Assembly (NCBI GenBank): GCA_964347045.1
Contig: CAYFXC010000005.1
Location: 1-27,216, forward strand
Direction: 5' to 3'
DNA: 27,216 nt
Source: an uncultured archaeon
GTDB taxonomy: Archaea; Asgardarchaeota; Hermodarchaeia; Hermodarchaeales; Hermodarchaeaceae
Shown: positions 1 through 20,510 of the stretch, piece by piece
How the letters are laid out: the number at the start of each line of letters is the position of its first letter
Position numbering within the stretch: position 1 is the first letter of the stretch
Notes under the pieces: generated by a model
What the model was told of the DNA's origin: nothing
Database searches by the model: none
What the model saw: only the letters and a program-made list of their open reading frames with translations
Position numbers and translations under genes: made by a program

Positions 1-451
1 AGGTACTTATGCCTAATAACTCCCATGCTGCGAATAGGATGATGAGATCATTAGCTAAAGACACCAGCATCATCCCGAGTAATGCTAGCGGAAGCAGTGA
101 ATAGTATGCTTCTTGATTTGGGTTGTCTTCAAGATACTTTATAGATGAAATTGTTACCCAATACCCAATTGCAATAAAAAGTATGACAAAAAAAAGAGCG
201 AAAGAATCCCAGGATAGAACATTTGAAAAAAGATAGGTTTCACTCGGGGGCGGCCATCGAAATGGGAGAATTAGTAATAAAACAGTTAAATTTACTAGGA
301 GCCAGTAGGAAGTAATCTCACGCTTCAATAATCGTTTCCCAATTCTATTAATTGCAGGACTAATCATACCAAAAAAAGCAAAAATAGCTAAAGGAATCAA
401 AGGTTCTCCAAGTAGAGATAGAAACCAATTGGCAAGTTCGAATATCTGCAT
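1..451 (-). CDS. nuoN: Complex I-like subunit N (antiporter-like), 5' part; runs off the window edge
   Basis: Not in the ORF track. Manual translation from the ATG at 451, directly after the nuoM TAG (452-454), gives MQIFELANWFLSLLGEPLIPLAIF...DSFALFFVILF...EAYYSLLPLALLGMMLVSLANDLIILFAAWELLGIST, open to position 1. It is hydrophobic, has the NuoN-type 'NDL...WEL' TM5 Glu motif, and follows nuoM. Confidence 0.85.
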   Translation of the reverse strand, partial: MQIFELANWFLSLLGEPLIPLAIFAFFGMISPAINRIGKRLLKREITSYWLLVNLTVLLLILPFRWPPPSETYLFSNVLSWDSFALFFVILFIAIGYWVTISSIKYLEDNPNQEAYYSLLPLALLGMMLVSLANDLIILFAAWELLGIST

Positions 452-1915
452 CTAAGGACCTCCTGTTGGTAGCAATTGTAGACATGCTGGAGTTATTCTA
501 TCCACCATCATCGCTGGAAATAAACCCAAAAGAATGATGGGCAAAATAAGAAGGACTGCTCCAAAGATTTCTACGCCCTTTGCACGTTTCATAGAGGCGC
601 CAGGTAATGGGTCACTGAGAATTGTCCGGTCAATTGTCCAAATGAAATATGCTGAAACAAGTCCTGGTGATAAAACAACTATCGCCATTAATGGATAGAT
701 GGTGATGGTTGCGGTGATAATCATGAATTCACTGACAAAATTCGAAAGAAAAGGCAATCCCATTGCTGCAAAAGAACCAAAGACAAATAATCCAGATGTC
801 AATGGCATATGGGTTCCCATGCCTGAAAGTTTGTCAATGGCTCTGGAACCTGCATTTTCCTTAATAATCCCTGAAAGCAGAAATAGGAGGCCAATCGCAC
901 AAGCGTGGTTAAACATTTGAAAAACGGCACCAGATATGCCAATTAAACTGCCCGAAAAGGTACCTAATAGGACGAATCCCATGTGATTGATACTTGTTAA
1001 AGCAATCATCCGTTTCATATCACGTTGAATTAGTGCCACAAAGGCACCATAGAATATTGTAAAGATAGCTAATATCATGAAAACCAATGAGAAAGCAATT
1101 GAAACTTCTCCGAACAAAGTTAGGTTAATTCTTAGGAATCCATATCCTCCCATCTTTAGAAGGACTCCCGCGAGAAGTACACTGATTGGTGCTGGTGCTT
1201 CCACATGTGCATCTGGTAGCCATGTATGAAGGGGAACAACAGGTAGTTTTACAGCAAAGCCTAGAAATGTCATGGTCATTGCAATAAATTGTACGGAGAT
1301 CGGTAGTGAGGTTTGCATGAGAGTAACCAGGTCAAACGTATGCGGTGATACACTGAGATAGATTACAATAAAGCCAAGAAGCATGATAGCGCTTCCGACA
1401 TGTGTGAAGATAAGAAACTTCATTGCCGCATACCGCCGATTCGTTCCTCCCCAGACACCAATGAGAACGAACATTGGAATTAGGACTAGTTCCCAAAATA
1501 TGAAAAACACAGCTAAATTAAGCGAAATAAAAACACCAATTAAACCTACTTCGAGAAGCAATAATGTACCATAATACTCCGAGATATTTTCAGTAATTAA
1601 TGTATTAGATCCGATGGCGGCGACCATGGTTAATAGAGTCGTGGCTAAAAGAAGTGGAAAGCTGATCCCATCAACACCAAGTTGAAAAGTAATTCCGATT
1701 GTCTCTGCCCACGATATATTTTCAAGAAATGAAAAACCTGTTTGGGATGGATTAAACCATAACCAAAGAAGAGCTGAAAATACGAATAGTATTGTTGGAA
1801 ATCCAATACCGAGAATTTTAGCAACTCGTAAGTTTAATCGTCCGACGGTGTAGGTTAGAAGTGAACCTATTAACGCTCCGAGTAAAAGCCATGTTAAAGG
1901 TGATAGTATTAGCAA
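452..1915 (-). CDS. nuoM: Complex I-like subunit M (canonical copy, 'M3')
   Basis: LGVDGIS, FWELVLIP (TM5 Glu), AVKLPVVPLHTWLPDAHVEAP (TM7 Lys), LLKMGGYG (TM8 Lys), FVSEF (TM12 Glu). TTG start with GAGG upstream. Confidence 0.93.
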   Translation of the reverse strand: MLILSPLTWLLLGALIGSLLTYTVGRLNLRVAKILGIGFPTILFVFSALLWLWFNPSQTGFSFLENISWAETIGITFQLGVDGISFPLLLATTLLTMVAAIGSNTLITENISEYYGTLLLLEVGLIGVFISLNLAVFFIFWELVLIPMFVLIGVWGGTNRRYAAMKFLIFTHVGSAIMLLGFIVIYLSVSPHTFDLVTLMQTSLPISVQFIAMTMTFLGFAVKLPVVPLHTWLPDAHVEAPAPISVLLAGVLLKMGGYGFLRINLTLFGEVSIAFSLVFMILAIFTIFYGAFVALIQRDMKRMIALTSINHMGFVLLGTFSGSLIGISGAVFQMFNHACAIGLLFLLSGIIKENAGSRAIDKLSGMGTHMPLTSGLFVFGSFAAMGLPFLSNFVSEFMIITATITIYPLMAIVVLSPGLVSAYFIWTIDRTILSDPLPGASMKRAKGVEIFGAVLLILPIILLGLFPAMMVDRITPACLQLLPTGGP

Positions 1916-1925
1916 TGCCTCGACC

Positions 1926-3977
1926 TCATATCCAAAATTGAGCTATTATGAAAATAATGAACGCAATAATTCCCAAAATGAAAGCAACAACATAATTCTC
2001 GATAATCCCAGTTTGTAATTTACGAATCAAGTTGGATGTTTTTTTTCCAAGTAAGGCGATAGAATTGATTGTTCGATCAACAACTTTGTCGTCGAAGAAT
2101 TGGCTTGCTTTCGATGAAAGAATTGTTAATTGTGCAAAAAGCGTGTTTATCCGTTCAAACCCTTGGTTTTCAAAGTAGTGATGAGCGCTTCTACTTCCTT
2201 GGATGGCTTGGGGAGAGAGAATATAGTGTGATCGGTCAATTGCGCCAATCTCAATCCTATTGAAGAGCGCATTGAAAAGCCAAAGCGAACCTTTGACAAA
2301 GATTTTGTCATAAAGAGCGTCAAAATAGTATCCATTGGTCAAAATTTTTTGAATGCCTTGTGTAAATTGACTCCTACCTATTCTCTCAGATGAGGGTTTG
2401 CGAGCTAAATAAACAATTGACACAGGAAATGCACCGATTATTAGAGCCGACAATGAAAGGAGAATGGGAATTAATTCGAATTCGAATAGGTGTTCGGTAT
2501 GAAGAAATAATCCCAGTAATCCAGAAGGTATGAGGAATCCAGAGAAACAAACGGTGCCTGCTAGTATTACAAGCGGAACAGTCATTGATTTAGGACTTTC
2601 ATGAACTCCTTGGGTTAGACTATTCGATCGGGGAACCCCTAAAAATACTAATATCAACCAGCGAAAGCTATAGGCCACTGTAAAGACTGAGGCAAGCCAG
2701 ACCATCATTAATGGAATGTAGGCTTCTGTATGCCATACTGCTGCGAAGATGAGATCTTTACTCCAAAAACCGTTAAGCGGAGGCACTCCTGACAAAGCCA
2801 GTATTCCAATAATACTTGTAGCGAAAGTTATCGGCATTTTTTGTCGCAGACCCCCCATTTGAGTAATATCAGATGTTCCTATTGCGTGTAAAACGGAACC
2901 TGCACATAGAAAGAGAAGTGCCTTAAACAATGCATGACTGAGAACATGAGCCTGACCAGCGAACCAGCCAAACGAAGATCCGATGCCTAGCCCCGTTAGA
3001 ATTAGACCTAATTGGCTTATTGTTGAATAGGCGAAAACGCGTTTTAAGTCATTGGAGGCTAAAGCCATGGTCGCAGTGAGCAGGGCAGTTATTGCACCCA
3101 CATAGATTGCTGTGGTAAGCCAGATTTCGATATTTTGGAAGATTACAAACGTACGACTAACTAGATAGATGCCTGCTTTAACCATGGTTGCCGCATGGAT
3201 TAGTGCGCTAACCGTACTGGGACCCTCCATCGCATCTGGTAACCAGACATGAAATGGAACTTGCGCTGATTTGCCCATAGCGCCTCCGAGAGTGAGAAGA
3301 GAAACCAGGCCTAGTGATTGTAATCCAATTTGCCCAAATTGCACAGCTTCATGCAAGTACAAGAAATCGAAAGAGCCAGTTAGAGTGAACAAGAAGATTA
3401 TGCCAATCAATAATGAAATGTCACCTATACGAGTGACAACGAATGCCTTCATTCCTGCTCGGGCTGCGGATGCTTTTTGATACCAGAAACCAATGAGTGC
3501 ATAAGAACACACTCCCACTACTTCCCAGAAAATAAAGAGTTGTAAAAAATTGTCAGCAAGAACTAGCCCAACCATGGCTCCAATAAAAAGTAAAATCAAG
3601 GCATAATAGCGAGTTTGGGCTTTGTCCTGGTGCATGTATCCTATCGAGTAGAATATAATTAGCAAGCCTATGATTATGGCTATATTAGCCATAAATACGC
3701 TCAGTGGATCAGCTAGCACTCCTATGAAAAGACCAGGTGGTGATGGAGGCGAAATTGGTTGGATAAGGGAAATTGGAATCCAAAGATATTGTTCATGGAT
3801 TGGAATTGTTTGATATAGAATATCAGGAATTAATGATATTGAGAAGAGTGCTGTGATCACACCAAAGACGATGGCCAATGTTTTTGGTAACTCCTGGTGA
3901 AGTCTACCAATAATAGTGATTAATAGTGAACCTAGTATAGGAATGAGCCAAACTAACCAAAGAGCAAAGGGGAGCAC
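1926..3977 (-). CDS. nuoL: Complex I-like subunit L with elongated C-terminal lateral helix
   Basis: FWEVVGVCSYALIGFWY, AFVVTRIGD, GKSAQVPFHVWLPDAMEGPSTVSALIHAATMVKAG, GFWSKDLI (TM12 Lys), YYFD...QTG lateral helix plus terminal TM. GTG start after GGAGGT. Confidence 0.95.
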   Translation of the reverse strand: MLPFALWLVWLIPILGSLLITIIGRLHQELPKTLAIVFGVITALFSISLIPDILYQTIPIHEQYLWIPISLIQPISPPSPPGLFIGVLADPLSVFMANIAIIIGLLIIFYSIGYMHQDKAQTRYYALILLFIGAMVGLVLADNFLQLFIFWEVVGVCSYALIGFWYQKASAARAGMKAFVVTRIGDISLLIGIIFLFTLTGSFDFLYLHEAVQFGQIGLQSLGLVSLLTLGGAMGKSAQVPFHVWLPDAMEGPSTVSALIHAATMVKAGIYLVSRTFVIFQNIEIWLTTAIYVGAITALLTATMALASNDLKRVFAYSTISQLGLILTGLGIGSSFGWFAGQAHVLSHALFKALLFLCAGSVLHAIGTSDITQMGGLRQKMPITFATSIIGILALSGVPPLNGFWSKDLIFAAVWHTEAYIPLMMVWLASVFTVAYSFRWLILVFLGVPRSNSLTQGVHESPKSMTVPLVILAGTVCFSGFLIPSGLLGLFLHTEHLFEFELIPILLSLSALIIGAFPVSIVYLARKPSSERIGRSQFTQGIQKILTNGYYFDALYDKIFVKGSLWLFNALFNRIEIGAIDRSHYILSPQAIQGSRSAHHYFENQGFERINTLFAQLTILSSKASQFFDDKVVDRTINSIALLGKKTSNLIRKLQTGIIENYVVAFILGIIAFIIFIIAQFWI

Positions 3978-5579
3978 TCAAAGACCTCCTAAGAGCGTTA
4001 GTATAAGTTGCTGTGCAAATGGGTAAATGACTTGTAAAATGAGCCATGGGAAGATACCGAGAAAAACGACTAGAAAAGCTACCAGAAGCATAGGTCCTGT
4101 CATTATGGTTGGTGATTCATGAACATCCTCGAAAAGGCGAGGAATGCCCTCAGGTGGGATTTCTAGCCCCTTTTTGTAGCGTTCAAAAAGTTCGTCTAGT
4201 GCTTCGGAGGGTGGTCCGAAAAAGATACGTCGAATTGTCCATAGATAATAAGCTGCTGTTAGAGCCGTTGAAGCGATTCCTACTACTCCTATGATAATGA
4301 ACCATGGATTAAGGATACTTGCCTGAAAGACTCCTAAGAAAATGAGAACCTCACTGGCGAAGGTTCCCATTGGAGGCGTTCCTGCTATCGCTAATGCCCC
4401 AACAAGACCAATTGTCGCTGTTACAGGCATCTTTACAGCGACCCCGCCCAATTTATTGATGTATTTAGTTCCTGCTGAGTGAACAAGGGATCCTGCACAA
4501 TACAATAAAATACCTTTTGCGAAGCCATGGGTTATTACATGAAAAAGACTACCTGCAATGCCGATTTCAGTCATCGTACTGAGACCTAGAAGAATATACC
4601 CGATTTGATTTGCTGAGCTGTAAGCTAGGACTCGTTTGAAATCAACTTGTACAAGTGCCATTGCTGCTCCCCAGATCATTGTGGTCAGTGCAAGAACTGC
4701 AAGTAGAAAGTTGCTCCTCAAAATGACTTCTGGAAAGAAAAAGTACGAAATTCGTACAAAGCCGTACGCGCCAGTCTTAATCATTACTGCGCTAAGAAGT
4801 GCATGGATCGGAACGGGGGCTTCTCCATGAAAATCAGGAAGCCAAGAATGAAGGGGAACAATTGCCATTTTCACAAAAAAGCCTACAGACATTAGGAAGC
4901 AAATGCTTTGTACAATCAAAACCCCGCTCGTACTAATTAGCGCAAACTGACTGGGCAAATCGTAGATGTCAAATGTTTGGGTTAAGCCAAAGGTCCATGC
5001 GATGCCTGCTAAAAGACAAAGTGCACCAACAACTACATAGAGAATGTATTTGAGTCCAATTGTCTTTGCACGTGGGGTTCCCCAATTTGATACCAAAAAG
5101 TAAGCCGGAATGTTCATACCCTCGAAGAAAATGAAGAACTGAATCAAATTTGTCGATAGAGTAACACCTACCATTCCCACTGCAAACAAAAGCAGCAAAA
5201 AGTAATACATAGCAAAATCATGCTTTTCCTTAATGTATTCGATGCTGTAGATGGATGAAATGGTGGCTAGACCCAAAATCGCGAGTGAGAGGGGTAGGCT
5301 CAGGAAGTCTGAGAGTAGGGAGAAACCTACTGTTAAAGACCCAATTGAAAACCATGGATACTCTTCATGTAATGGCTGTCCGGTGATGAGTACCTGGTTA
5401 AAGACGATTAATAAAAGGAAGAATGATGTGCCTAGTGCCAGTGAAGAAAAGATACCTGCACTTTTCCGGTCGAGTGGCTTCCCAAAGATTACTGTAGCCA
5501 AGATGATTAGAGCAACGATTGTTGGCAGCAAAAGTGCAAAAAGCATTAAAGGTGTTGTCGAAGGTGTTCCGGGAAGCAA
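3978..5579 (-). CDS. nuoM: Additional NuoM-type antiporter-like subunit ('M2')
   Basis: FFEGMNIP, FVKMAIVPLHSWLPDFHGEAP, MIKTGAYG, KRVLAYSS, FASEVLIF (TM12 Glu). Start re-called to the TTG at 5579, which follows GGAGGT and the previous stop. The track start at 5771 overlaps the upstream gene. Confidence 0.85.
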   Translation of the reverse strand: MLPGTPSTTPLMLFALLLPTIVALIILATVIFGKPLDRKSAGIFSSLALGTSFFLLLIVFNQVLITGQPLHEEYPWFSIGSLTVGFSLLSDFLSLPLSLAILGLATISSIYSIEYIKEKHDFAMYYFLLLLFAVGMVGVTLSTNLIQFFIFFEGMNIPAYFLVSNWGTPRAKTIGLKYILYVVVGALCLLAGIAWTFGLTQTFDIYDLPSQFALISTSGVLIVQSICFLMSVGFFVKMAIVPLHSWLPDFHGEAPVPIHALLSAVMIKTGAYGFVRISYFFFPEVILRSNFLLAVLALTTMIWGAAMALVQVDFKRVLAYSSANQIGYILLGLSTMTEIGIAGSLFHVITHGFAKGILLYCAGSLVHSAGTKYINKLGGVAVKMPVTATIGLVGALAIAGTPPMGTFASEVLIFLGVFQASILNPWFIIIGVVGIASTALTAAYYLWTIRRIFFGPPSEALDELFERYKKGLEIPPEGIPRLFEDVHESPTIMTGPMLLVAFLVVFLGIFPWLILQVIYPFAQQLILTLLGGL

Positions 5580-5581
5580 TT

Positions 5582-7108
5582 TTATGAACCTCCCAGGGTG
5601 AGCGTCATTATCCATTGAGAGATTGGATTGAGGACGAGATTGGGCCAAAATCCAAGGAGAATAGCAAGAAACGCGAGAAAGACAAGTGGGATCGTAAAGG
5701 ATAACGGTTGGTTTGTCGAATGTGATGAGGTTACACTTGAAGGAGCCACGAATAAGCGAAAAAGAAGCCACAACAGATAACTGAAGGTCAAAACAACCGA
5801 AAGAACGGCTGGAATAGCAATGATAATCGACCCCGGAACTGTGAAAACCCCGGCAAATATGAGAACTTCACTAACAAAGCCATTGAGTGGAGGTATGCCA
5901 GCTAAACCAAGTGATCCCACAAGTAAAGCCGAACTGGTTATTGGTATTCGGCGTCCAAAGCCACGTAAATCGTCTAATTTGGAAGTATTGGCTAGTTTAA
6001 TGAAAGATCCCGAACAAAGGAAAAGAAGACTCTTGAGAATCGCATGATTAACAATATGGAACGCAGCGCCACCTAGCCCGATAACCGAAACCGAAACAGC
6101 TCCCAGGAAAATGTAACCCGCTTGACTAATGCTTGAATAGGCGAGAAGTCGTTTTAGCTCAGATTGTCCTATTGCCAAATACCCGCCATATACTATTGAA
6201 ACAAATCCTATGAAGCTTAATGGTATAGTCCATAGAATCATTATAGATGGGAACCAACTAGAAATCGCTCGAACGAGTCCGTAGGCACCAATCTTTGCCA
6301 TTAAACCTGAGATAATTGCGGATACAGGAGTTGGTGTGTGTACGTATGTGTCAGGTAGCCAACTATGCAAAGGGACAAGACCTAGCTTTACACTAAATCC
6401 TAAAATCATGGCAATGGCTGCAAAACGTAATAGATCCGCAAATGTGCCTACATTCATTAGAGCGGTTGGCAGTTCTATCAAACTACTAGTACCTGCTAGC
6501 ACAACAACTTGAATAATGCCAATAAGCAGAAAAAGAGCTCCAATGTGAGTATATAGAAAGAATTTCAATCCAGTCTTTCTAACAGCAGCCCGTTCAATGC
6601 CTGGTTCGCTCCAAAAAATTAGTAGTAAAAAAGCAGGTATGAGAGTTAATTCCCAAAAAAGATAAAAGAAGAAAATATCTGCTGCAGCGAAGACACCTTG
6701 TGTTCCAACATAGAGAAGCAATAATTTTGCATAAAAGAAACCTGTTTTTTTATCTTCATCAATATATGCTCCGCCAAATAACAAAATGAGAAAAGTTACA
6801 ATTGCAGTTATAACCATTATGGGCAGACTTAGGCCATCCAGCATGAAACCAAATTGAATATTCAAAACAGAAAGCCAAGGCAAAATCTCTACAACTATTC
6901 TGCCACTTAGTATCTCACTACTTTGAACCAATAGGGCAATCAGAGAAAATAAAATAGCTATCATACTAGCAATCTGTGCACTCTTTCTTCCGCGTCGATT
7001 AAGTAAGAGAACCAATGGAATAGCAAAAGTGGGAATTAAAATCGATAGAGTGAGAGAATATGGCATTAGATAAAACTGAATAAATGCCCACAATATTTCT
7101 AATACCAA
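5582..7108 (-). CDS. nuoM: Additional NuoM-type antiporter-like subunit ('M1')
   Basis: FMLDGLS, FWELTLIP, SVKLGLVPLHSWLPDTY, MAKIGAYG, LKRLLAYSSISQAGY, FVSEVLIF (TM12 Glu). Confidence 0.85.
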   Translation of the reverse strand: MVLEILWAFIQFYLMPYSLTLSILIPTFAIPLVLLLNRRGRKSAQIASMIAILFSLIALLVQSSEILSGRIVVEILPWLSVLNIQFGFMLDGLSLPIMVITAIVTFLILLFGGAYIDEDKKTGFFYAKLLLLYVGTQGVFAAADIFFFYLFWELTLIPAFLLLIFWSEPGIERAAVRKTGLKFFLYTHIGALFLLIGIIQVVVLAGTSSLIELPTALMNVGTFADLLRFAAIAMILGFSVKLGLVPLHSWLPDTYVHTPTPVSAIISGLMAKIGAYGLVRAISSWFPSIMILWTIPLSFIGFVSIVYGGYLAIGQSELKRLLAYSSISQAGYIFLGAVSVSVIGLGGAAFHIVNHAILKSLLFLCSGSFIKLANTSKLDDLRGFGRRIPITSSALLVGSLGLAGIPPLNGFVSEVLIFAGVFTVPGSIIIAIPAVLSVVLTFSYLLWLLFRLFVAPSSVTSSHSTNQPLSFTIPLVFLAFLAILLGFWPNLVLNPISQWIMTLTLGGS

Positions 7109-7123
7109 ATTCTGAATTGGAAC

Positions 7124-7432
7124 TCACCCCTTTAATTTTCGAACTTCTCCAACGTCAATAGTTCGATGCACTCGTGAAACCAAGATCAAAATTGCAAGCC
7201 CAACGGCGGCTTCTGCTGCTGCAAATGCAATCGTGAATAGAACAATACTCTGCCCTGCTAAAGGGGAAGGGAGGTGAAATCTTGAAAAAGCCACCAAACT
7301 CAGATTCGCTGCATTCATCATTATCTCTGCACTGAACAGAATTCGCATAGCGTTGCGCTTACTCGCAAGACCATACATTCCAATGCAAAAAAGCACAATC
7401 GCGATTGTGAGATATATACCGAGTGTTGCCAT
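7124..7432 (-). CDS. nuoK: Complex I-like subunit K
   Basis: True start is the ATG at 7432, overlapping the nuoJ stop (TAATG). 102 aa with KRNAMRILFSAEIMMNAANL and AAAEAAVGLAI. Confidence 0.93.
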   Translation of the reverse strand: MATLGIYLTIAIVLFCIGMYGLASKRNAMRILFSAEIMMNAANLSLVAFSRFHLPSPLAGQSIVLFTIAFAAAEAAVGLAILILVSRVHRTIDVGEVRKLKG

Positions 7433-7944
7433 TAATCGGATTCCTCCTTCTTGATAAGTGTCAAGGCACCCATGAGCGCAGATGTAAGAATCAAACCTAA
7501 AATCAGTAGAGCCACTCCATACTCTTGAAAAATCAACAATGCCAGTTCTTCGATGGACCAACTCCAAGGCTGGGATGAAACCTCGAATAAGCCGGATGTA
7601 ACAAAAGATAGACTTACAAAAGTAAGGAGCATCGAAGTAATAACTAGGGGAACTGCCCACTCATATGTAGGGCGTTTGATTTGGTGTCTCCACTGCTCTA
7701 ACGGGACAACCATAATTGTAAACAGAATCAGAACGACAATAGCTCCTATGTACACAGAAATTTGCCACATTGCCACATATGTTGCCTCTAAAAGAATGAA
7801 AATCCCGGCAATTCCTAGAAACATGGCTCCCAGCGAAACTGTGCCATATACGATTTCTTTTGCTTCCAGTGATGTGATTGCAGCTGCAATGGTCAGAATT
7901 GCGATAATAACAAGAGTTAGATCAAGTAGAGAAAATTCAAGCAA
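7432..7944 (-). CDS. nuoJ: Complex I-like subunit J
   Basis: Five predicted TM segments, LEATYVAMWQISVYIGAIVVLILF motif, position between nuoI and nuoK. Confidence 0.9.
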   Translation of the reverse strand: MLEFSLLDLTLVIIAILTIAAAITSLEAKEIVYGTVSLGAMFLGIAGIFILLEATYVAMWQISVYIGAIVVLILFTIMVVPLEQWRHQIKRPTYEWAVPLVITSMLLTFVSLSFVTSGLFEVSSQPWSWSIEELALLIFQEYGVALLILGLILTSALMGALTLIKKEESD

Positions 7945-7948
7945 TGAT

Positions 7949-8371
7949 TTATTCTTCCCCTAAATTATTCGATTTAACGATGGTTTCATTCTTGAGATTT
8001 GGTTGCATTCCAAGCGCATCGGCCGAGTAAACTAAGGTCTCTATGTGCCTTGTTGATAGGTGGAAAAAGTTCGTATGTTCAAGTGCATTCTTAGGGCATT
8101 TATCCACACAAAATCCACAGAAGATGCAAAGCCCATAATCTATTTTTGGATATTTTTTCTTCTCGTCACTAGCTATCTCTTGCTCTATCATTTCGATTGC
8201 ATCGGCTGGACAGCTCTTAGCACAAAGCCCACAACTGATGCAAAGGTCCATGTGGAAAAGATGGCGCCCTCGGTATCGATTTGAAAGAAGAAGTTCTTGG
8301 GTTGGATATTTCACAGTAACTCTTCTTTTGAAGAAATTTTTGATTCCTGAATATGCAGCTCGAAAACTCAT
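7949..8371 (-). CDS. nuoI: Complex I-like subunit I (2x[4Fe-4S] ferredoxin-like)
   Basis: TVKYP...RYRGRH, CISCGLCAKSCP and CIFCGFCVDKCP. The ATG at 8371 overlaps the nuoH stop (TAATG). Confidence 0.93.
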   Translation of the reverse strand: MSFRAAYSGIKNFFKRRVTVKYPTQELLLSNRYRGRHLFHMDLCISCGLCAKSCPADAIEMIEQEIASDEKKKYPKIDYGLCIFCGFCVDKCPKNALEHTNFFHLSTRHIETLVYSADALGMQPNLKNETIVKSNNLGEE

Positions 8372-9411
8372 TACGGTAAGCCTCCAAAGATTGTCATTTT
8401 GAGAAAAATGGCGATGAATAGGTTCAAAATGGCTAGATACAACAATCGGTTCCATCCGATACGTAACATATCCGAAAGTCGTACACGGGGGAGAACGGCT
8501 CTGGGGAAAATGAGAAGAACTAATACAATTGATGTTTTGATAAAGAACCAGACAAATGGTGGGAGGAGATCTTGGACAATAGCAGGGACTATCCAGCCTC
8601 CCAGAAATAGGGTTGTAAAGAGCATTGCTCCAACATACAGCTTAAGGTACATGGATACCATTAGAATACCAAAATACATTCCTGAGTATTCGCTCATCCA
8701 ACCAGTTACAATTTCGGGTTCTGCTTCTGGTAAGTCAAATGGCACACGTTCAATCTCGGCTAATAGAGCTATGAAAAATGCAATTGCGCCTAACGGTTGT
8801 AATACTATTAACCAAAAGCCCGATTGAAAATTGACTATTTCAGTTAGATTCAACGTGTTCGCTAACATGACAAGACCAACGGTGGAAAGCCAAAAGGGAA
8901 CTTCGTAGGCGATTTGTTGAAAGAGGGCACGTAATCCTCCTAGGAAAGGATATGTGCTATGGCTTGCCCATGCAATGATTACAGCCATGGTGGGATAAAT
9001 TGCCATTATAGCGAAAATAAAAAGAAGGCCAAACTCTAAATTTGAAATTACTAGACCAGGACCTACAGGAATAATCGTGACGGTGGTTGCGGCAAGAGTC
9101 AGGGCAATTATAGGGGCGATTTGGAAGAGTTTTTTGTCTGCGCGGTCAGGAATAATTGGTTCTTTAAACATGAGCTTCATAAAGTCTGCAACAGGTTGCA
9201 GGATACCACCAACCTTCCCAGCATATTGGGGACCCACACGGAGTTGAACCTTAGCCATGAATTTTCGTTCAAACCAAATGATTACCGCTGAAGCCAGCAG
9301 CATTGTAATCATTCCTGGAAAGATTACGATTTTTAGAAAAAGCTCTGAAGTGAGAAATGTCATGAGCGTCCAAAACAGGTTGTTGATGAATTCCAGAGGG
9401 TTCACTATCAA
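8371..9411 (-). CDS. nuoH: Complex I-like subunit H
   Basis: WFERKFMAKVQLRVGP, GILQPVADFMKLMFKE, AEIERVPFDLPEAEPEIVTGWMSEYSG, PRVR. Confidence 0.95.
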   Translation of the reverse strand: MIVNPLEFINNLFWTLMTFLTSELFLKIVIFPGMITMLLASAVIIWFERKFMAKVQLRVGPQYAGKVGGILQPVADFMKLMFKEPIIPDRADKKLFQIAPIIALTLAATTVTIIPVGPGLVISNLEFGLLFIFAIMAIYPTMAVIIAWASHSTYPFLGGLRALFQQIAYEVPFWLSTVGLVMLANTLNLTEIVNFQSGFWLIVLQPLGAIAFFIALLAEIERVPFDLPEAEPEIVTGWMSEYSGMYFGILMVSMYLKLYVGAMLFTTLFLGGWIVPAIVQDLLPPFVWFFIKTSIVLVLLIFPRAVLPRVRLSDMLRIGWNRLLYLAILNLFIAIFLKMTIFGGLP

Positions 9412-9414
9412 TCA

Positions 9415-10494
9415 CTACCGATCAGAATCAGGTGCCCAATAGTCAAGACTCCAATAGATTGTGGGAACATCAGCAAGTGCACAATTTCTTAGGAGAAAAG
9501 GAAGAATAGGTAGATTGCGAAAGGAAGGTGTGCTAATCTTTACGCGGCTTGGTTTATTGCTGCCATCGCCTTGTATATAATATCCAAGCTCACCTCGTGC
9601 CGCCTCGACGCGTGAATAGCTATATCCTGACGGAACACGTGTTGGAACTTTTACTTGAATTTCACCTGAGGGGAGATAATCAACAGCTTGTTTTAATAAA
9701 AGACAACTAGTTCGCATCTCTTCTAGGCGCACCATTGCTCGAGAATAACTATCGCCTTCGTCAAAGACTGCGGGTTCGAAATCTAAATCGGGATAAGCTG
9801 CATAAGGTTCAATCTTACGAATATCATAGTTGGCACCTGAAGCTCTAAGAACAGGTCCTGTTGCACCCAGCTGAATTGCATCATTTCTGTTCAGAATTCC
9901 TATTTCTTTAGTGCGCTGCTTGAAAATTGGATTCTTGAAAAAAATTCTTTCATAATCTTGAAGGCGTTTCAGAAAATTGTGAATTATCTTATTTAATCGA
10001 CTAGAGAATTTTTCGGGAAGAGAATGACGGACTCCGCCAGATAGAATATCAGAGTAAGTCATTCGGGCTCCGCTTATTTCTTCTGCTAACTGGATGAATA
10101 ATTCCCGATCACCAAAGGGCCACATAAACATTGTTGAATGACCCAAGAAGATCCCGTAGATGGCAATCCAGTATAAATGGCTCATTATTCGATTCATCTC
10201 AGCAAATATCACGCGAATATACTGTGCACTCGGAGGGGGGGTAATATTCAGTAGCTTCTCAATTGCCAGAACAAAGCCTAGGCTCGCTGCACTAGTATCT
10301 GGCAAGCAAACTCTTTCTACAAGAGGAATATTCTGAACAAAATCCTTACTTTCACATAACTTCTCAGTGCCTCTATGAACATAGCCAGGGTCTGGTATTA
10401 TTTCGCGCACAATATCTCCGGATAATCTCACTCTCATTCTAAAGTGTCCAGTTCCAGGATGTTGGGGTCCCGCACTGAAAAATATCTCAGACAT
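9415..10494 (-). CDS. nuoD: Complex I-like subunit D (49 kDa family; not a [NiFe] large subunit)
   Basis: GPQHPGTGH, GYVHRGTEK, EMNRIMSHL, GATGPVLRASG, EAARGELG, C-terminal SLDYWAPDSDR. Both NiFe CxxC pairs are absent. Confidence 0.92.
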   Translation of the reverse strand: MSEIFFSAGPQHPGTGHFRMRVRLSGDIVREIIPDPGYVHRGTEKLCESKDFVQNIPLVERVCLPDTSAASLGFVLAIEKLLNITPPPSAQYIRVIFAEMNRIMSHLYWIAIYGIFLGHSTMFMWPFGDRELFIQLAEEISGARMTYSDILSGGVRHSLPEKFSSRLNKIIHNFLKRLQDYERIFFKNPIFKQRTKEIGILNRNDAIQLGATGPVLRASGANYDIRKIEPYAAYPDLDFEPAVFDEGDSYSRAMVRLEEMRTSCLLLKQAVDYLPSGEIQVKVPTRVPSGYSYSRVEAARGELGYYIQGDGSNKPSRVKISTPSFRNLPILPFLLRNCALADVPTIYWSLDYWAPDSDR

Positions 10495-10500
10495 TTGTGT

Positions 10501-10962
10501 TCACTCATTAGACGTTCGAAAATCTTTTCGTAATGGGTAACCTTGATCCCAGGATTCGGGAAGTAGTAGGCGTTCTAGTTTAGGATGGCCTTCGAATTCC
10601 ACACCAAACATCTCCCAGCTTTCACGTTCATGCCACTCAACACTTGGATAAACGTGAATGAGGGTTGGAATTCTAGGTGTGTTTCTGTCAATGAAAACCC
10701 GAATTGTGAGGATTATTCCTTTCAACTGGGATTGTTCGACTGAACAAAGATGATAGTTCACGCTGAATTGATTCTGTTCTATTAGATCTATCACAGAAAC
10801 TGAAATCGCATGATCAAATCCAAGGATTTCCTTAACATATTTAGCAAAAGTAATTAGAAGTGTGTGAGGGATAATGATAGTCATTTCCTTCTTGCCTGAG
10901 GAAACCACCTCCAAACCATCGATCTCAAATTTTTTTTCAAGCTTTGATGAGATGTCAACCAA
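10501..10962 (-). CDS. nuoC: Complex I-like subunit C
   Basis: [41 protein letters not shown]. Probable start is the TTG at 10962 after a GGTGA RBS (track start 11016). Confidence 0.92.
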   Translation of the reverse strand: [153 protein letters not shown]

Positions 10963-11055
10963 CGTTATCACCACTTTGAATATAGCCAATCCACGATGTA
11001 ACAAAATATTCAACAATTAATTCTTGGATTATCGAGGAATACATGATTAATCATC

Positions 11056-11310
11056 TCAACTAGAATTCCTCATCCAGCCCATTGCTGATTGCACAAAAAC
11101 GCATATTTCTGTAAAATGGAGAAATGGCATTCGGTAGAAGTTTTGATTAATGCTTCTTCTTTTGACAAAGTCCTTAGATTTTATAATTGGAGGATGGTTT
11201 GACGTTTCAGATGAACTACGTCCTAAGGATTTTGAAATACCAAAAATAGATCGATCATTTCCCGTTCGTAAATCAGATTTTTTAATCCGTTCGCTATTTG
11301 TTAAGTTCAT
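11056..11310 (-). CDS. Hypothetical 84-aa protein between nuoB and nuoC (may be non-coding)
   Basis: The ATG lies 7 nt after the nuoB stop, on the operon strand, filling an otherwise unexplained ~350 bp gap. No recognisable motif. Confidence 0.3.
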   Translation of the reverse strand: MNLTNSERIKKSDLRTGNDRSIFGISKSLGRSSSETSNHPPIIKSKDFVKRRSINQNFYRMPFLHFTEICVFVQSAMGWMRNSS

Positions 11311-11317
11311 ATCAAAA

Positions 11318-11863
11318 TCACCCTATTATTCCTTGAGCTTCTTGTACACTTCTCGAACTCGCCTTTGATTTTCTAATTTTATCTTGAAGAAGAAGAATGG
11401 CGTCAATCAACATCTCCGGTCTCGGAGGGCATCCGGGTACATAAACATCGACCGGGAGAATTTGATCAACTCCGTGAACTATATTGTAGGACCCTCGAAA
11501 AATACCTCCAGAGATGGCACAAGCTCCCATTGCAATAACATAGCTAGGTGATGCCATCTGATGATGAACTCGGATAACTCGTTCAGCCATTTTGTTTGAT
11601 ACAGTTCCTTCAATTATGAGCAAATCGCATTGTCTTAGCGATCCAAGTGGCATTACACCCATACGTTCTGCGTCGAAACCAGGACCCATGGTTGCGCCGA
11701 ATTCAACGCTGCAACAAGCTGTTGTCAAGTGTACGGGCCAAAGCGAGTAGAGCCGTGACCAATTCACGACATAGCTGATTACTCCCAAATCTATTATTCG
11801 TGCAATGGCGCTTCGTAGTTTACCTATGAAGGCACGTCCAATCGAGCTCAGCGCTAATACCAC
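11318..11863 (-). CDS. nuoB: Complex I-like subunit B (N2 cluster)
   Basis: TACCSVE tandem cysteines, RQCDLLIIEGT, VIAMGACAISGG, PVDVYVPGCPPRPE. Confidence 0.95.
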   Translation of the reverse strand: MVLALSSIGRAFIGKLRSAIARIIDLGVISYVVNWSRLYSLWPVHLTTACCSVEFGATMGPGFDAERMGVMPLGSLRQCDLLIIEGTVSNKMAERVIRVHHQMASPSYVIAMGACAISGGIFRGSYNIVHGVDQILPVDVYVPGCPPRPEMLIDAILLLQDKIRKSKASSRSVQEAQGIIG

Positions 11864-12222
11864 CTTCTTTTCTTTGAAGCCAAGTTGATTGCAATTGCTA
11901 GCGGAGGCAAAATAGTAAGGAGAAAAGCAACTACTATTACGTGTAAATTAAAACCCAATGTAGCTGAGGCTGTTGCCCATGCAAAAAGGAACATAGACGT
12001 CACATCAAAAACCAAGAATAGTAGGAGGTAGGGATAATAGTGGAAAACAAATTGGTTTCTGCCTGCTCCACTGGGCTCTTCTCCACATTCAAAACTTACG
12101 CCTTTATCCTTGTGCGGGCTTCGAGGACTAACCAGCTTTGAGATGATGATGCTTAAAACAAACGAACTTGATACTACTGATTGAAAGAGCAGGATAATGC
12201 CAAAGTCTTCAAATGCCGTCAA
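11854..12222 (-). CDS. nuoA: Complex I-like subunit A
   Basis: FECGEEP loop, YYPYLLLFLVFDV, three TM segments. TTG start preceded by AGGAGGT. Confidence 0.93.
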   Translation of the reverse strand: MTAFEDFGIILLFQSVVSSSFVLSIIISKLVSPRSPHKDKGVSFECGEEPSGAGRNQFVFHYYPYLLLFLVFDVTSMFLFAWATASATLGFNLHVIVVAFLLTILPPLAIAINLASKKRRWY

Positions 12223-12775
12223 AGAGACCTCCTTGATATTTTATATCTTTGAAAAGCGAGAAACTTGCCACATTCTTTTGATCATAACTATCGATTCGCT
12301 CAAAGTATGGTCAAATCATCTGCTAAAAACAGTATAGTGTTTAAAATAGAATAAAATGAACAAAATATTATTTGTCTAGAGAAAAGTCTTTGAGGCATTG
12401 TTCATGGCCGTAGATTCTTAAAGAGATACTCAATTTAGGTGTGGCAACTAGGATATACAAATGCGTGTTTCTGTCATCACTACAATGAACATCCAATTAG
12501 TTCTTTTCTTGATAAAATTTCTCGAAAATTTATACCATAGGTTCACGCCATTGTAAGAACTCGAACAACGCTATTATTTAGAAAAAAGTGGTTCACTGGA
12601 ATGACTCCTTAGATAGCCTTTCTTTGAGGATGTACACAGGAATCTCTGTTGAGTAGAAATTAAATTTCCACAAATTATTACCATCTGCTTTTTTAAAAAC
12701 AAGTTTTTGTACAAGCTCTTTCTTTATCTGGGGCGAAGGGTGTCAAAATACTCTTCAAAATCAATTAAAAACGAA
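12223..12775. promoter_or_regulatory. AT-rich divergent promoter region between the nuo operon and the GGR-prenyl synthase-menA cluster
   Basis: Head-to-head gene arrangement. Imperfect palindromes ATAAAATTTC-TC-GAAAATTTAT (12512-12533) and ACAAA-ATATTA-TTTGT (12360-12375). Confidence 0.5.
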
Positions 12776-13990
12776 ATGAACTTCATGGCTAAACCATTAT
12801 ATGATGTTGCAGTTGTTGGTGCTGGACCTGCTGGTTGCGTTGCTGCTCGCGTTGCCGCAAAATCTGGATTAGATACAATCATATTTGATAGTCGAAAGCA
12901 GATTGGCATTCCCGTTCAATGCGGCGAATACTTACCCACACCCGAAGAGATGCGTAATTTACTTCCAAGTTCCCCACGAGTTAGTAGGCTTGTCGATGTT
13001 CCCAAAGACGTGATAACAAATCGAAGTTCACGTCTTTTGCTCGTGTCTCCATTCAACAATAAATTTGAATTCAGTCTAATTTCTAATATTATTGATCGTG
13101 CCAAGTTTGATCAATATCTCGCACAGCAAGCTGAAAATGCAGGAGCTCAAATTCAATTAAAAACCACAGTCTTAAATCGTACTAATTCGAACCAACTTAT
13201 TATTCGAGATAAGACTGGACGACGGAAAATCTCAGCCAAAGTCGTAATTGGGGCTGATGGTGTTCAATCTCGGATTGCTCGTTCGATTGGGTTGCATTAC
13301 GAAAATAGAACTCGTGATTTGTCACCTTGTATACAATATGTTATGACTTCTATCGATTGTGACCCAGAGACCACTGAAATGTATTTTGGCAATCAGATCG
13401 CTCCTGGTGGGTATGCCTGGGTTATTCCAAAAAATGAGGAGACCGTAAACATCGGACTTGGGTTTCGTGGAATATATTCAAAGCATTCTGAAACTGCAAT
13501 CTCCTATTTGCGACGGTTCATTCATTCGCATCCCTCTGTTGCTCATAGGATGAAAAAAGGGAAGATTATTCGTAAAACTGGAGCGTTAGTGCCAGTAGGA
13601 GGGCCAAGGGCTAGAACCTATTCTGATTCGGTGCTTCTGATTGGTGATGCTGCAGGGCATGTTATGGCATCCAATGGAGGTGGTGTACCAACTGCTCTTG
13701 GGGGAGGAGAAATAGCTGGAATTGCTACTGTCCAGCACCTTCAAGATGGTAGTTCATTGAGCTGGTATGAAAGAACTTGGAAGAAAGAATTCGGGAAAGA
13801 GCTTATCTCAGCCTTAGATATCCTCCGGATTGCAGATGTTATTATGGCTTCTGATAGTCTCACCGATCAATGTATGCGACTTGCTGGCCCTCGTTATCTT
13901 CGTCATTTAATTAGATGTAGGCTCCCTTTTCCTGTCAAGTTTGCATCAAAAACACTTGTTAGATTTCTTAGACTCCTCTCGCCGATATAG
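12776..13990 (+). CDS. Geranylgeranyl reductase family FAD-dependent oxidoreductase
   Basis: YDVAVVGAGPAG, PVQCGE, IDRAKFD, VIGADG, GYAWVIPK, IGDAAG...NGGG. Start probably the ATG at 12776 or 12785 rather than the TTG at 12707. Confidence 0.9.
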   Translation: MNFMAKPLYDVAVVGAGPAGCVAARVAAKSGLDTIIFDSRKQIGIPVQCGEYLPTPEEMRNLLPSSPRVSRLVDVPKDVITNRSSRLLLVSPFNNKFEFSLISNIIDRAKFDQYLAQQAENAGAQIQLKTTVLNRTNSNQLIIRDKTGRRKISAKVVIGADGVQSRIARSIGLHYENRTRDLSPCIQYVMTSIDCDPETTEMYFGNQIAPGGYAWVIPKNEETVNIGLGFRGIYSKHSETAISYLRRFIHSHPSVAHRMKKGKIIRKTGALVPVGGPRARTYSDSVLLIGDAAGHVMASNGGGVPTALGGGEIAGIATVQHLQDGSSLSWYERTWKKEFGKELISALDILRIADVIMASDSLTDQCMRLAGPRYLRHLIRCRLPFPVKFASKTLVRFLRLLSPI

Positions 13991-14256
13991 TACAAAATTA
14001 GGTTTGGATGTAAGTTTAGGGCTCGGAAATCGCTTATTGCAGCACTTCGATTTGTTGATTTTAGATTTTTCATTTTGTTCAATTAATTATAAATATAATA
14101 GTGATATTATTAAAAGGCGAAATCCGATTGGAAAATGATGACACTTTATTAGGTGGCGTTTTCTCCCTTATGGACAAAAATAGTAAAAAAGTTTCAGCTA
14201 CCTTTTGTACTAGTATATGTATGAAGTGTGAATACTCAACAAAGGAGTCACAGTGA

Positions 14257-15315
14257 ATGGTTAATAACAATTCAACAACCAATACCCCTCATTTGCAGCG
14301 TTCCTCCAATTCAAATTCAACTGCTAAACTTCCTACCGCAGTGACTTCCACGATTTTTAAATCTGAGGATATCCAAGAAAAAATGCTGCTCATAAATGAA
14401 GCACTTCAAGACTTCCTAAAAACACTAACAGGCGAACCCAAAATTTTGTATGAAGCTGCTCGGCATTTAATTTTAGCAGGCGGCAAGCGATTACGGTCTT
14501 TGGTTACTCTTCTTTGTTGCGAAGCTGTTGGTGGTTCTGTCAAAAAAGTTCTACCCATCACCGTCGCAGCTGAATTATTACAAACGGCGAGTCTTATACA
14601 CGATGATATCGTCGATAAAGATGATCTTCGGAGAGGGGTTCAAACCGTCCACAAGAAGTTTGGACTCGACATAGCAATCCTCGCTGGTGATTTACTTATT
14701 GCCCAGGCATTCAAACTCATCGGTGAGCACGGATCTCCCGAACTCATAGCAAATGTGGGTGCAAGCGGCATCCGTATGTGTGAAGGAGAAGTAATTGATC
14801 TCTTCATCACCCCAGAAAATGAAGAATCCTTTACTAAAGAACAGTATTTGAACATGGTTGAACGAAAAACTGTTGCTTTTTTGGAAGAGGCCGCGAGAAC
14901 AGGAGCAATTGTTGGTGAAGCCACACCTGAACAATGCAAGGCACTTACCAAGTATGGTGCCATGATTGGGTATGCTTTTCAACTCCGTGATGATATCCTC
15001 GATATAAAAGCGACAAGACAAATCGTCCAAAAAACCACATTATCTGATTTACGACTGAAACGTGGGAATTATCCTTTGATTTTTGCCCTTGAAGCTTGTT
15101 CTGATGATAAACGGAACGAATGCCTTGAAGCTTTAAATAGCCGTCAATGGAAAAGGGTTCTTGATATAATTTCCGAAACCAATGCTATCCAACAAACCTC
15201 AAAATTAGCCCAAAGCTATAGTAAACGAGCAAAGAGAGCTCTTCAAGGAAATAATTTCGTGAATAAACATGTCCTTGAACAACTGGCTGACTTCACATTA
15301 CAAAGAGAATTCTAA
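14257..15315 (+). CDS. Trans-polyprenyl diphosphate synthase, probably medium/long-chain
   Basis: GGKRLR, FARM ASLIHDDIVDKDDLRRG, RKT, SARM FQLRDDILD. AAGGAG RBS before the ATG. Confidence 0.92.
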   Translation: MVNNNSTTNTPHLQRSSNSNSTAKLPTAVTSTIFKSEDIQEKMLLINEALQDFLKTLTGEPKILYEAARHLILAGGKRLRSLVTLLCCEAVGGSVKKVLPITVAAELLQTASLIHDDIVDKDDLRRGVQTVHKKFGLDIAILAGDLLIAQAFKLIGEHGSPELIANVGASGIRMCEGEVIDLFITPENEESFTKEQYLNMVERKTVAFLEEAARTGAIVGEATPEQCKALTKYGAMIGYAFQLRDDILDIKATRQIVQKTTLSDLRLKRGNYPLIFALEACSDDKRNECLEALNSRQWKRVLDIISETNAIQQTSKLAQSYSKRAKRALQGNNFVNKHVLEQLADFTLQREF

Positions 15316-15338
15316 TTAATAATTTCAATGCTGGTGAA

Positions 15339-16406
15339 TTGGCATTGACTGAAAACCCAAACAAAGATATTAGTAAAGTCCGAGCATGGTTTAATGAACT
15401 TCGTCTTCCATTTGCAACAGCTTCAATTATTCCCATCTTATTAGGCTCCGCAATTGCATGGGCTACAACTGGGATGTTTCTTTGGGATACTTTTTTGCTT
15501 ACACTCATTGGTGGAGTTTGCATCCATTTGGGCGCTAACATTGCCAATGACTATTGGGATTATCGCCAAGGCTCAGATAATATCAACGTCGAATATATTC
15601 GACCTTTTACTGGTGGAAGTCGAATGATCCAACAAGGATTGCTTTCTCCGCGAGAAGTCTTAACAGGTTCAATTATTTTTTTTAGCCTTGGTGCTATTAT
15701 TGGTCTTTATTTAGCATTTACTCGTGGCTTCATAATTTTGGTTATTGGGGTTCTGGGCGTATTTTTAGCATTTTTTTATACAGCACCACCCTTCAAATTT
15801 GTGAGTCGTGGAATCGGAGAAACAGTCATTGGAATCTGTTTTGGGCTACTCCTTACACTAGGTGCTTTTTACACTCTGACTCAAATCATTACTTGGGAAC
15901 CGATTATACTCTCTATCCCCATTGCTCTTTTGGTTGCTGGAATTCTGTATATTAACGAATTTGCAGATTTCAAAGCTGATCGCGATGCGGGCAAACACAC
16001 TTTAGTTGTGCGGTTAGGACGAAAACGAGCATCCTACCTCTATGTTGCCATTTTGGTTTTTGTATATCTAGTCGTCATTCTTGCCATCCTATTTAATATC
16101 ACAAACAATTATACACTAATGGTCTTTTCCACAATTCCATTAAGCCTACTCGGAGCTAGATATGCTCTCAAGTGGTATGATCAACCAATGGCAATGATTC
16201 CTGCCAATGTAGCCACTGTGGTCAATCATTTGGTTACAGGCATTATGCTAACTCTCGCGTATATTTTCTTTGGACTCAGTTTCCTATTTTCCCCTGGTCT
16301 AATCTTGCCCTGGGTTATTTTGACAGGTATCATCTGTTTCATAATTGCAATATACTTTACTCGTCGAGTGCATAAACAAGCACAAGCTATGATGAAGAGT
16401 AATTAA
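15339..16406 (+). CDS. menA: 1,4-dihydroxy-2-naphthoate polyprenyltransferase (MenA/UBIAD1 family)
   Basis: RLPFATASIIPILLG, ANDYWDYRQGSD, FYTAPPF...GIGE, NEFADFKADRDAGKHTLVVRLG. Multi-TM protein. Confidence 0.87.
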   Translation: MALTENPNKDISKVRAWFNELRLPFATASIIPILLGSAIAWATTGMFLWDTFLLTLIGGVCIHLGANIANDYWDYRQGSDNINVEYIRPFTGGSRMIQQGLLSPREVLTGSIIFFSLGAIIGLYLAFTRGFIILVIGVLGVFLAFFYTAPPFKFVSRGIGETVIGICFGLLLTLGAFYTLTQIITWEPIILSIPIALLVAGILYINEFADFKADRDAGKHTLVVRLGRKRASYLYVAILVFVYLVVILAILFNITNNYTLMVFSTIPLSLLGARYALKWYDQPMAMIPANVATVVNHLVTGIMLTLAYIFFGLSFLFSPGLILPWVILTGIICFIIAIYFTRRVHKQAQAMMKSN

Positions 16407-18644: not shown

Positions 18645-18648
18645 TATA

Positions 18649-19491: not shown

Positions 19492-19544
19492 ATCTTCAAC
19501 CTTTAATATACTTGGTTCTTCTATGAGAAACTGGTGTAGGAGTT

Positions 19545-20321: not shown

Positions 20322-20510
20322 TTCAACTGAATATTTACAGAAAATCGCAATATTGGCTCCTGAAGAGATGAAGGCTGAACAGACTTTAAGAAGACCCAAT
20401 CGGCATTTAGATGTACTCATCGTTCCGGCTAGCCTTATCATTGAGAATGGATGAGACAATAAACCAGCGGGAAAATAAAGGTAGCCAGAAGTATCGTCGG
20501 GGTCAAAAAT

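Follow-up and report, generated by a model that had tools for sequence, protein, structure and literature searches.

How many antiporter-like modules can a single complex I carry in its membrane arm? The question is raised by a complex I (nuo) operon on the minus strand, positions 2-12222, of a stretch of 27,216 nucleotides (the window) from an uncultured archaeon of the Hermodarchaeaceae (Asgardarchaeota). This window covers the first 27 kb of contig C5 in a metagenome-assembled genome (MAG) of 2.58 Mb, which has 83 contigs and is 88.9% complete and 3.8% contaminated. An earlier reading made from the sequence alone (the sequence-only reading) had described five antiporter-like genes in this operon, three of them of the NuoM type, and had proposed a membrane arm with two extra pumping modules. 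Following our analyses, we find it fairly probable that the operon encodes a complex I-type enzyme of the 11-subunit kind, without the NADH module, in which NuoN, M3, M2, M1 and NuoL would sit together in the arm.

The operon and its occurrence in other genomes

In the direction of transcription the gene order is nuoA-B-(a small winged helix-turn-helix-like gene)-C-D-H-I-J-K-M1-M2-L-M3-N, and all large open reading frames (ORFs) of the region belong to this one operon. Protein families were called with Pfam and NCBIfam, and the five proteins encoded after nuoK all match Proton_antipo_M (PF00361). M1 (5582..7108, 508 aa) and M2 (3978..5579, 533 aa), the first and second supernumerary antiporter-like subunits of the NuoM clade, scored 324.5 and 294.8 bits against TIGR01972 (NDH_I_M, NuoM; cut-off 263.8 bits), and M3 (452..1915, 487 aa), the canonical NuoM, scored 468.2 bits. 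NuoL (1926..3977, 683 aa) matched TIGR01974 with 518 bits (cut-off 407.5), and the first 150 codons of nuoN (2..451) had NuoN-type models as their best matches, below cut-off. The 11-subunit core of complex I (A, B, C, D, H, I, J, K, L, M and N) is complete within the operon. Besides NuoB and NuoD, to which we return below, it comprises nuoA, the first gene (11854..12222, 122 aa; orthologues carry PF00507, 60-66% identity to the A subunits of sister operons), nuoC (10501..11016, start uncertain; PF00329, 122 bits), nuoH (8371..9411, 346 aa; 59-62% identity to sister-operon H subunits with PF00146), nuoI (7949..8371, ferredoxin-type with 2x[4Fe-4S]; Fer4 family matches), nuoJ (7432..7944, 170 aa; PF00499, 86.6 bits) and nuoK (7124..7429, 101 aa; PF00420, 93.8 bits).

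The ORF listing and measurement of the junctions bore out the tight coupling claimed for K-M1-M2-L-M3-N, with gaps of 15 nt (K/M1), 2 nt (M1/M2), 0 (M2/L), 10 (L/M3) and 0 (M3/N) and a GGAGG-like, Shine-Dalgarno-like motif upstream of each start. M2 begins with TTG two bases past the M1 stop, a start that was set by the conserved MLPG N-terminus of its orthologues. A direct repeat bracketing M2 was considered and found no support: the M1/M2 and M2/L junctions score 10 locally, compared with 5-10 for other junction pairs, and a GGAGGT motif is all they have in common.

The nuoN gene is cut by the contig end and is not broken in the genome. Contig C52 (3.4 kb) shares an exact 55-bp overlap with the start of C5 and completes a NuoN of 495 aa, and its other end overlaps the start of contig C2 by an exact 55 bp. 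When the three contigs are joined, nuoN is directly followed by a second operon, A-B-C-D-H-I-J-K-Ma-L(766 aa)-Mb-N, which is complete and by gene content of the type called 2M, with one extra NuoM. The join was confirmed by the closest sister species (G007), where N and then A-B-C of the next operon lie on one contig. In this same species the M3 orthologue is read as two overlapping ORFs of 273 and 275 aa (L031 2596-3985), from a frameshift or a sequencing error.

The three M copies had been described as divergent, undecayed and no product of assembly duplication, and this held up on every count. M2 shares 37% identity with each of M1 and M3, the gene order recurs in independent genomes, and M1, M2, L, M3 and N have between-species ratios of nonsynonymous to synonymous substitutions (dN/dS) of 0.03-0.15, similar to those of NuoD and NuoH (M1 0.09-0.14; M2 0.03-0.05).

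We searched archaeal genomes for the K-M-M-L-M-N synteny, as the sequence-only reading had proposed, and found it in five species of the same genus, in Candidatus Borrarchaeum and in Candidatus Geothermarchaeales. Within the genus, the full A-to-N order with M1-M2-L-M3-N is present in G003, G004 and G008, and G009 and G007 have the same order, interrupted by a contig end in the former and spread over pieces (88-93% identical) in the latter. A Logan contig of 58 kb (L054), an ENA contig of 114 kb and Candidatus Borrarchaeum sp. (L055, GCA_019058535.1) share the 13-gene order as well. In a set of 400 Asgard species genomes, nine have an M1 orthologue. They represent two families, with 6 of the 15 genomes of this genus and 3 of the 5 of the Borrarchaeum genus. 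The named relatives of M1 are labelled 'Promethearchaeota archaeon', 'Candidatus Borrarchaeum sp.' and 'Candidatus Baldrarchaeia archaeon'. Borrarchaeum has hydrogenase-type L, M3 and N subunits. A chimera at its M2/L junction was examined and rejected, the two assemblies being identical there (they may represent one population) and L being hydrogenase-type from its first residue; two more loci of the Borrarchaeum family (G310, G312) stop before nuoL. When M2 was used as the query against the genome contig collection, the only matches were unrelated NuoM-like proteins of Bacteroidales.

Outside the Asgard archaea, a Candidatus Geothermarchaeales MAG (L061, GCA_046758885.1; Thermoproteota) carries A-H-JK(fused)-M-M-L-M-N with an L tail of 135 residues, and its nuoB, C, D and I lie elsewhere. 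Another contig with a long L tail encodes an M2-like protein followed by L (718 aa), M and N. From the long-tailed K-M-M-L-M-N operon of Geothermarchaeales it follows that the design with three M subunits (3M) is not confined to Asgard archaea and crosses archaeal phyla.

The extra M subunits and the lateral helix of NuoL

The charged residues of the antiporter-like subunits were compared by alignment to E. coli NuoM, using E144, K234, K265 and E407 as references for the Glu of transmembrane helix 5 (TM5), the Lys of TM7, the Lys of TM8 and the Glu of TM12. M1, M2 and M3 all present E/K/K/E, their TM12 motifs being FVSE, FASE and FVSE, and both L and N present E/K/K/K, with WSKD in L. All the charged residues claimed in the sequence-only reading are thus present.

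Maximum-likelihood trees were built with E. coli NuoL/M/N and HyfB/D/F, S. aureus MnhA/D, Tateyamaria MrpA/D and the 'green' complex I subunits of rhizobia as references. M1, M2 and M3 fell into one NuoM clade with E. coli NuoM (support of 99 in the Shimodaira-Hasegawa-like approximate likelihood ratio test, SH-aLRT), and M1 and M2 grouped neither with MrpD nor with HyfB. Inside this clade, M3 and Mb of the adjoining operon group with bacterial NuoM, the M3 clade including the NuoM of both E. coli and S. meliloti; M2 and Ma group with the single M of Asgard complexes of the NiFe-hydrogenase type; and M1 forms a clade of its own. The approximately unbiased (AU) test, run on a 37-row alignment under LG+G4, rejected a grouping of M1 and M2 with MrpD (p 0.0017) and did not reject M1 and M2 as sisters (p 0.38).

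NuoL was found by alignment and in an AlphaFold2 (AF2) model to carry the lateral helix (HL) and its anchor TM16. Counted from the (Y/W)xFDxxY motif to the C-terminus, the NuoL of E. coli has 73 residues, the L of single-M Asgard complexes 75-91, and the L of the window operon and its orthologues 131-132. The HL is thus about 53 residues longer than in E. coli NuoL and single-M Asgard L, which corresponds to two additional units of 26-27 residues. The HL region (residues 574-657; 2007..2258, minus strand) consists of three such repeat units with the pattern hydrophobic-[ED]-x-x-G/x-hydrophobic-[DE]-x-x-N-...-S, and its self-similarity peaks at offsets of 26-27, above all 300 shuffles. The AF2 model (mean predicted local distance difference test score, pLDDT, 81.9; 52-sequence alignment) has helices at 552-604 and 610-655 followed by a transmembrane helix at 659-682, with some 100 helical residues before TM16. 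A profile-free search with the L tail over 1.84 billion representatives found other L subunits with equally long tails.

The 2M enzymes have one HL insertion of 26 aa, thought to span the extra subunit (PMC6606698; PMC9040806). Because there is one such insertion per extra subunit in those enzymes, two units would go with two extra subunits, and the extension in the window, twice the published 2M value, is the expected signature of a five-module arm. The ~53-aa insertion accompanies two extra M genes both in the window operon with its orthologues and in Geothermarchaeales.

The redox end, the acceptor and the neighbouring genes

NuoB (11318..11863, 181 aa; orthologues carry PF01058) has two adjacent cysteines in the motif ACCSVE, and NuoK keeps both of its membrane glutamates (E36 and E74, read from the translation). 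Tandem cysteines in NuoB are typical of complex I, where they are ligands of cluster N2, and CxxC is typical of the hydrogenases (PMC7684303). The best solved relative of NuoD (9415..10494, 359 aa) is T. thermophilus Nqo4 (E 3.6e-76, the closest), and NuoD also matches, over its whole length, MbsL of MBS, the membrane-bound reductase of sulfane sulfur (E 8e-73). The group 4 [NiFe]-hydrogenase motifs RxCGxCxxxH and DPCxxCxxR are absent from NuoD, which has ERVCLPDTSAAS and LDYWAPDSDR in their place; three of the four NiFe cysteines are gone, one of the first motif remaining (ERVCLPD), and the single-M Asgard relatives keep the motifs that NuoD has lost. MbsL retains two of the four cysteines and lacks His38 and Tyr87, and in complex I none of the four cysteines is left (PMC7684303). 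The state of the window enzyme, one cysteine in NuoD together with the tandem-Cys NuoB, lies between MBS (two) and complex I (none).

The genome, at 88.9% completeness, yielded no NuoF, and by analogy with archaeal complexes without NuoEFG (PMC9723677) the electron donor is probably ferredoxin. On the plus strand, divergent from nuoA, lie three prenyl-lipid genes (12707..16406): a geranylgeranyl-reductase (GGR) family gene (12707-13990; TIGR02032, 237.8 bits), a polyprenyl diphosphate synthase (14257-15315; matches of the IdsA/geranylgeranyl diphosphate synthase type) and a MenA-like dihydroxynaphthoate prenyltransferase (15339-16406; TIGR00751, 126 bits versus a cut-off of 102). The same trio flanks the 3M operon in L054. 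This gene content suggests that a prenylated quinone is the likely acceptor.

From these elements we propose how such an enzyme might work. Electrons, most likely from reduced ferredoxin, would travel via NuoI and NuoB and reach a hydrophobic pocket for the acceptor in NuoD/NuoH; this acceptor would probably be a prenylated quinone made with the adjoining MenA-like cluster. A conformational and electrostatic wave would then run along the conserved Glu/Lys chain through all five modules, with NuoL pushed two positions outward and still tied to the base by a lateral helix grown by two tandem units of 26-27 residues. If every module pumps, up to 6 ions could be moved per 2 electrons, a value that is pure inference, although plausible. 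Such an enzyme would fit an energy-limited anaerobe working near equilibrium, or it might run in reverse, the ion gradient driving electrons from quinol to ferredoxin.

In L054, genes for SQR-like, TusA and DsrE proteins lie upstream of the 3M operon (2685-4662), and genes for an HdrD-like protein, a 242-aa protein and DoxD lie directly downstream (18170-21098). These neighbours hint at an island of sulfur- and quinone-linked electron transport. In the source genome (G000), HdrD-like and DoxD genes are located 14 kb past the second operon, and SQR-like and DsrE genes were not found there by tblastn. The window also holds a cluster of LarE, LarC and LarB homologues (nickel-pincer cofactor biosynthesis) at 18010-20321.

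The small winged helix-turn-helix-like ORF between nuoB and nuoC (11056..11310, minus strand, 84 aa) has no Pfam match. It is 34% identical (pairwise E 1e-12) to an HTH_5 gene in the same place in L054 (5803-6117), and on this resemblance it is a diverged homologue of an ArsR/HTH_5-type regulator gene. Sister species have a gap of ~310 nt in its place, and a regulator gene inside a nuo operon is unusual. Elsewhere in the genome, on contig C4 (128.7-137.7 kb), there is a hydrogenase-type set J(split)-K-L-M-N, whose A-B-C genes run on the other strand; it brings the complex I-like gene sets of this genome to three. In the C4 set two ORFs of 290 and 300 aa make up the split N-like gene, and M carries Ala where the TM8 Lys would stand.

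Alternatives and relation to known enzymes

Co-assembly of all five antiporter-like subunits is, judging from the genes, probable. Several observations nevertheless weigh against the reading as a whole. Three of them concern the lateral helix. The adjoining operon has an HL insertion of the same ~53 aa, homologous to that of the window operon and with an extra C-terminal hydrophobic stretch, with just one extra M; the L of the Borrarchaeum 3M operon has no insertion with two extra M genes; and the local confidence of the AF2 model is low in the HL region (pLDDT 43-68). Because of the first two, helix length does not simply count subunits, and the extension is strong but not simple evidence. 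Perhaps the second operon has lost M1, or it may carry two copies of Ma.

Others concern the acceptor. NuoD has Leu at the position of the quinone ligand Tyr87 of Nqo4, and the His of its beta1-beta2 loop (His38) is shifted by one residue, with a one-residue deletion; this remnant-Cys pattern, with Leu at Tyr87 and displaced His, is conserved in Borrarchaeum and L054. Searches of the genome for MqnA/D (PF02621), and by tblastn with the E. coli proteins for MenD, F, C and H, gave no match, which makes the acceptor uncertain. There are MenB-like matches of 38-41% identity, which could equally be of the BadI or crotonase type. The absence of NuoF and the adjoining MenA-like cluster fit the ferredoxin:quinone coupling suggested earlier, and the absence of the canonical quinone-ligand Tyr from NuoD weighs against it.

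The last of these observations leads to the alternative that survives best. M1 has Asn in place of the TM8 Lys in G003, G004, G008, G009 and L054, as has the first of the extra M subunits in Geothermarchaeales, and Ma of the adjoining operon has Gly. With the Lys replaced in sister species and in Geothermarchaeales, M1-type modules may not pump everywhere and their pumping competence is uncertain. Perhaps all five subunits assemble, and one or both of the extra M subunits serve as spacers, as a regulated leak or as a secondary module for cation/proton exchange, similar to the Mrp-type one in the membrane-bound hydrogenase (MBH), giving a net ratio near 4-5. M1 is moreover the fastest-evolving subunit, with 46-48% identity between species groups compared with 59-66% for the others. 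However, M1 and M2 of the window keep all four key residues, and the dN/dS of M1 is similar to that of NuoN. The NuoL of E. coli also has no Lys at the TM8 alignment column, yet it pumps. We therefore regard this explanation as unlikely, while taking it seriously. Of the proposal that the arm has two extra pumping modules, what stands is that two intact NuoM-clade subunits are encoded in one operon, under purifying selection, beside a NuoL whose helix is two units longer; the TM8 Lys missing from M1-type subunits elsewhere leaves the pumping part in doubt.

It is also conceivable that M1 and M2 lie beyond NuoL at the distal tip of the arm, or that they form a separate Mrp-like antiporter which is merely co-transcribed. 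The normal-length L helix of Borrarchaeum beside its M1-M2 pair would suit such an arrangement, and in the 'green' complex I of rhizobia the MrpD-like subunit is assumed to be distal to the one bearing the HL (PMC9040806; locus L045). Against this, the operon contains no small subunits of the MrpB, C, E, F or G type (nor MbhA-G), its only small membrane subunits being NuoA, J and K; M1 and M2 belong to the NuoM clade and not to MrpD; and 3M co-occurs with the two-unit HL extension in three lineages. A distal or separate location thus seems quite improbable, and we infer an order in the arm with M1 and M2 inside of NuoL.

Slightly more doubtful still is the idea that M1, M2 and M3 are interchangeable isoforms, one or two of which enter each complex depending on the conditions. 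It has been suggested that paralogous complexes are put to different uses where an organism has several nuo operons (PMC6606698), and this genome does have its three complex I-like sets. The three M genes, however, lie in one operon with junctions of 0-10 nt and no internal regulatory space, they represent three old and distinct subclades that have been kept together in several lineages, and an HL two units longer would have no purpose in a three-module arm. Finally, an assembly chimera or a set of decaying duplicates, which might be suspected of a window that begins at a contig end within nuoN in a fragmented and slightly contaminated MAG, is effectively refuted by identical gene order on contigs of at least eight other assemblies, by the exact contig overlaps and the repetition of the N-to-next-operon junction on one G007 contig, and by purifying selection on all the genes.

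The preferred reading, a five-module arm, can be set beside several known enzymes. Complex I of the 2M kind was reportedly described by Chadwick, Hemp, Fischer and Orphan in 2018 (ISME J 12:2668), and the criteria and features used for it are those given in the citing papers PMC6606698, PMC7117926, PMC7300363 and PMC9040806. The window operon resembles these enzymes in having extra NuoM-clade subunits with the TM12 Glu, a lengthened NuoL lateral helix and, as is often the case in their operons, no nuoEFG. They are known in archaea, including heterotrophic marine Thaumarchaeota (PMC7300363), and the uses proposed for them are raising the H+/e- ratio or driving electrons backwards to ferredoxin. 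The window operon differs in having two extra M genes, placed between nuoK and nuoL, instead of one, and an insertion of ~53 aa (two units) instead of ~26; the 2M gene content is met in the adjoining operon (K-Ma-L-Mb-N).

A closer parallel in number is Complex_I_3 of Candidatus Manganitrophaceae (Yu, Chadwick, Lingappa and Leadbetter 2022, mBio, PMC9040806), which shares five subunits of the ion-pumping type and an HL insertion, was described as unique, and for which 6 ions per 2 electrons and reverse electron transport to ferredoxin were proposed. That enzyme is bacterial, two MrpD-like subunits replacing NuoL alongside two NuoM and NuoN, and it has a single 26-aa insertion, whereas the window enzyme is archaeal and has a true NuoL (TIGR01974), three NuoM-clade subunits, a two-unit insertion and no affinity to MrpD.

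The complex I-like group 4 [NiFe]-hydrogenases of Asgard archaea (PMC11291895; bioRxiv 10.1101/2024.07.04.601786) come from the same phylum and have a J-K-L-M-N arm with a full lateral helix, and their single M is the closest relative of M2. They retain the NiFe Cys motifs and have at most three antiporter-like subunits, whereas the window operon has lost the motifs and has the tandem-Cys NuoB and five such subunits. The complex I-like arms of Asgard archaea have been described as shorter than that of complex I (Appler et al.). MBS of Pyrococcus furiosus (6U8Y; PMC7684303), whose MbsL is matched by NuoD at full length, likewise lacks an equivalent of Tyr87 and keeps remnant NiFe cysteines. In contrast to the window operon, with its complex I tandem Cys in NuoB and just one remnant Cys, it combines an Mrp-type module with a proximal cluster of three Cys, retains two Cys as remnants and lacks an operon of the NuoA/J/K/L/M/N type.

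A full-text literature search found neither three NuoM subunits in one complex I (3M+L+N) nor supernumerary pumps in an Asgard complex I. The suggestion that no three-M complex had been described is in so far consistent with the literature; a five-pump complex I as such is already known from Manganitrophaceae, as are 2M forms from archaea, and only the 3M+L+N composition appears undescribed. Going further, the K-M-M-L-M-N operons might represent an old archaeal class of ferredoxin-linked complex I in Asgard archaea and Geothermarchaeales, reversible near equilibrium, with five modules and ~6 ions per 2 electrons, whose NuoD would be a surviving intermediate between sulfur- and proton-reducing ancestors (MBH, MBS) and quinone-reducing complex I. 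This wider picture is a speculative one, and we would not expect it to hold in all its parts.

The reach of the coupling signal in complex I, and the possibility of stringing on pump modules like beads, are mechanistic questions still open, and an arm of five modules with a proportionally lengthened clamp helix would be a direct test case for them. The five-module operon is present in several archaeal lineages and stands beside a four-module paralogue in the same genome. It is relevant to energy conservation in Asgard archaea, which are starved of energy and are the nearest relatives of eukaryotes known, and also to how complex I evolved from ancestors resembling hydrogenases.

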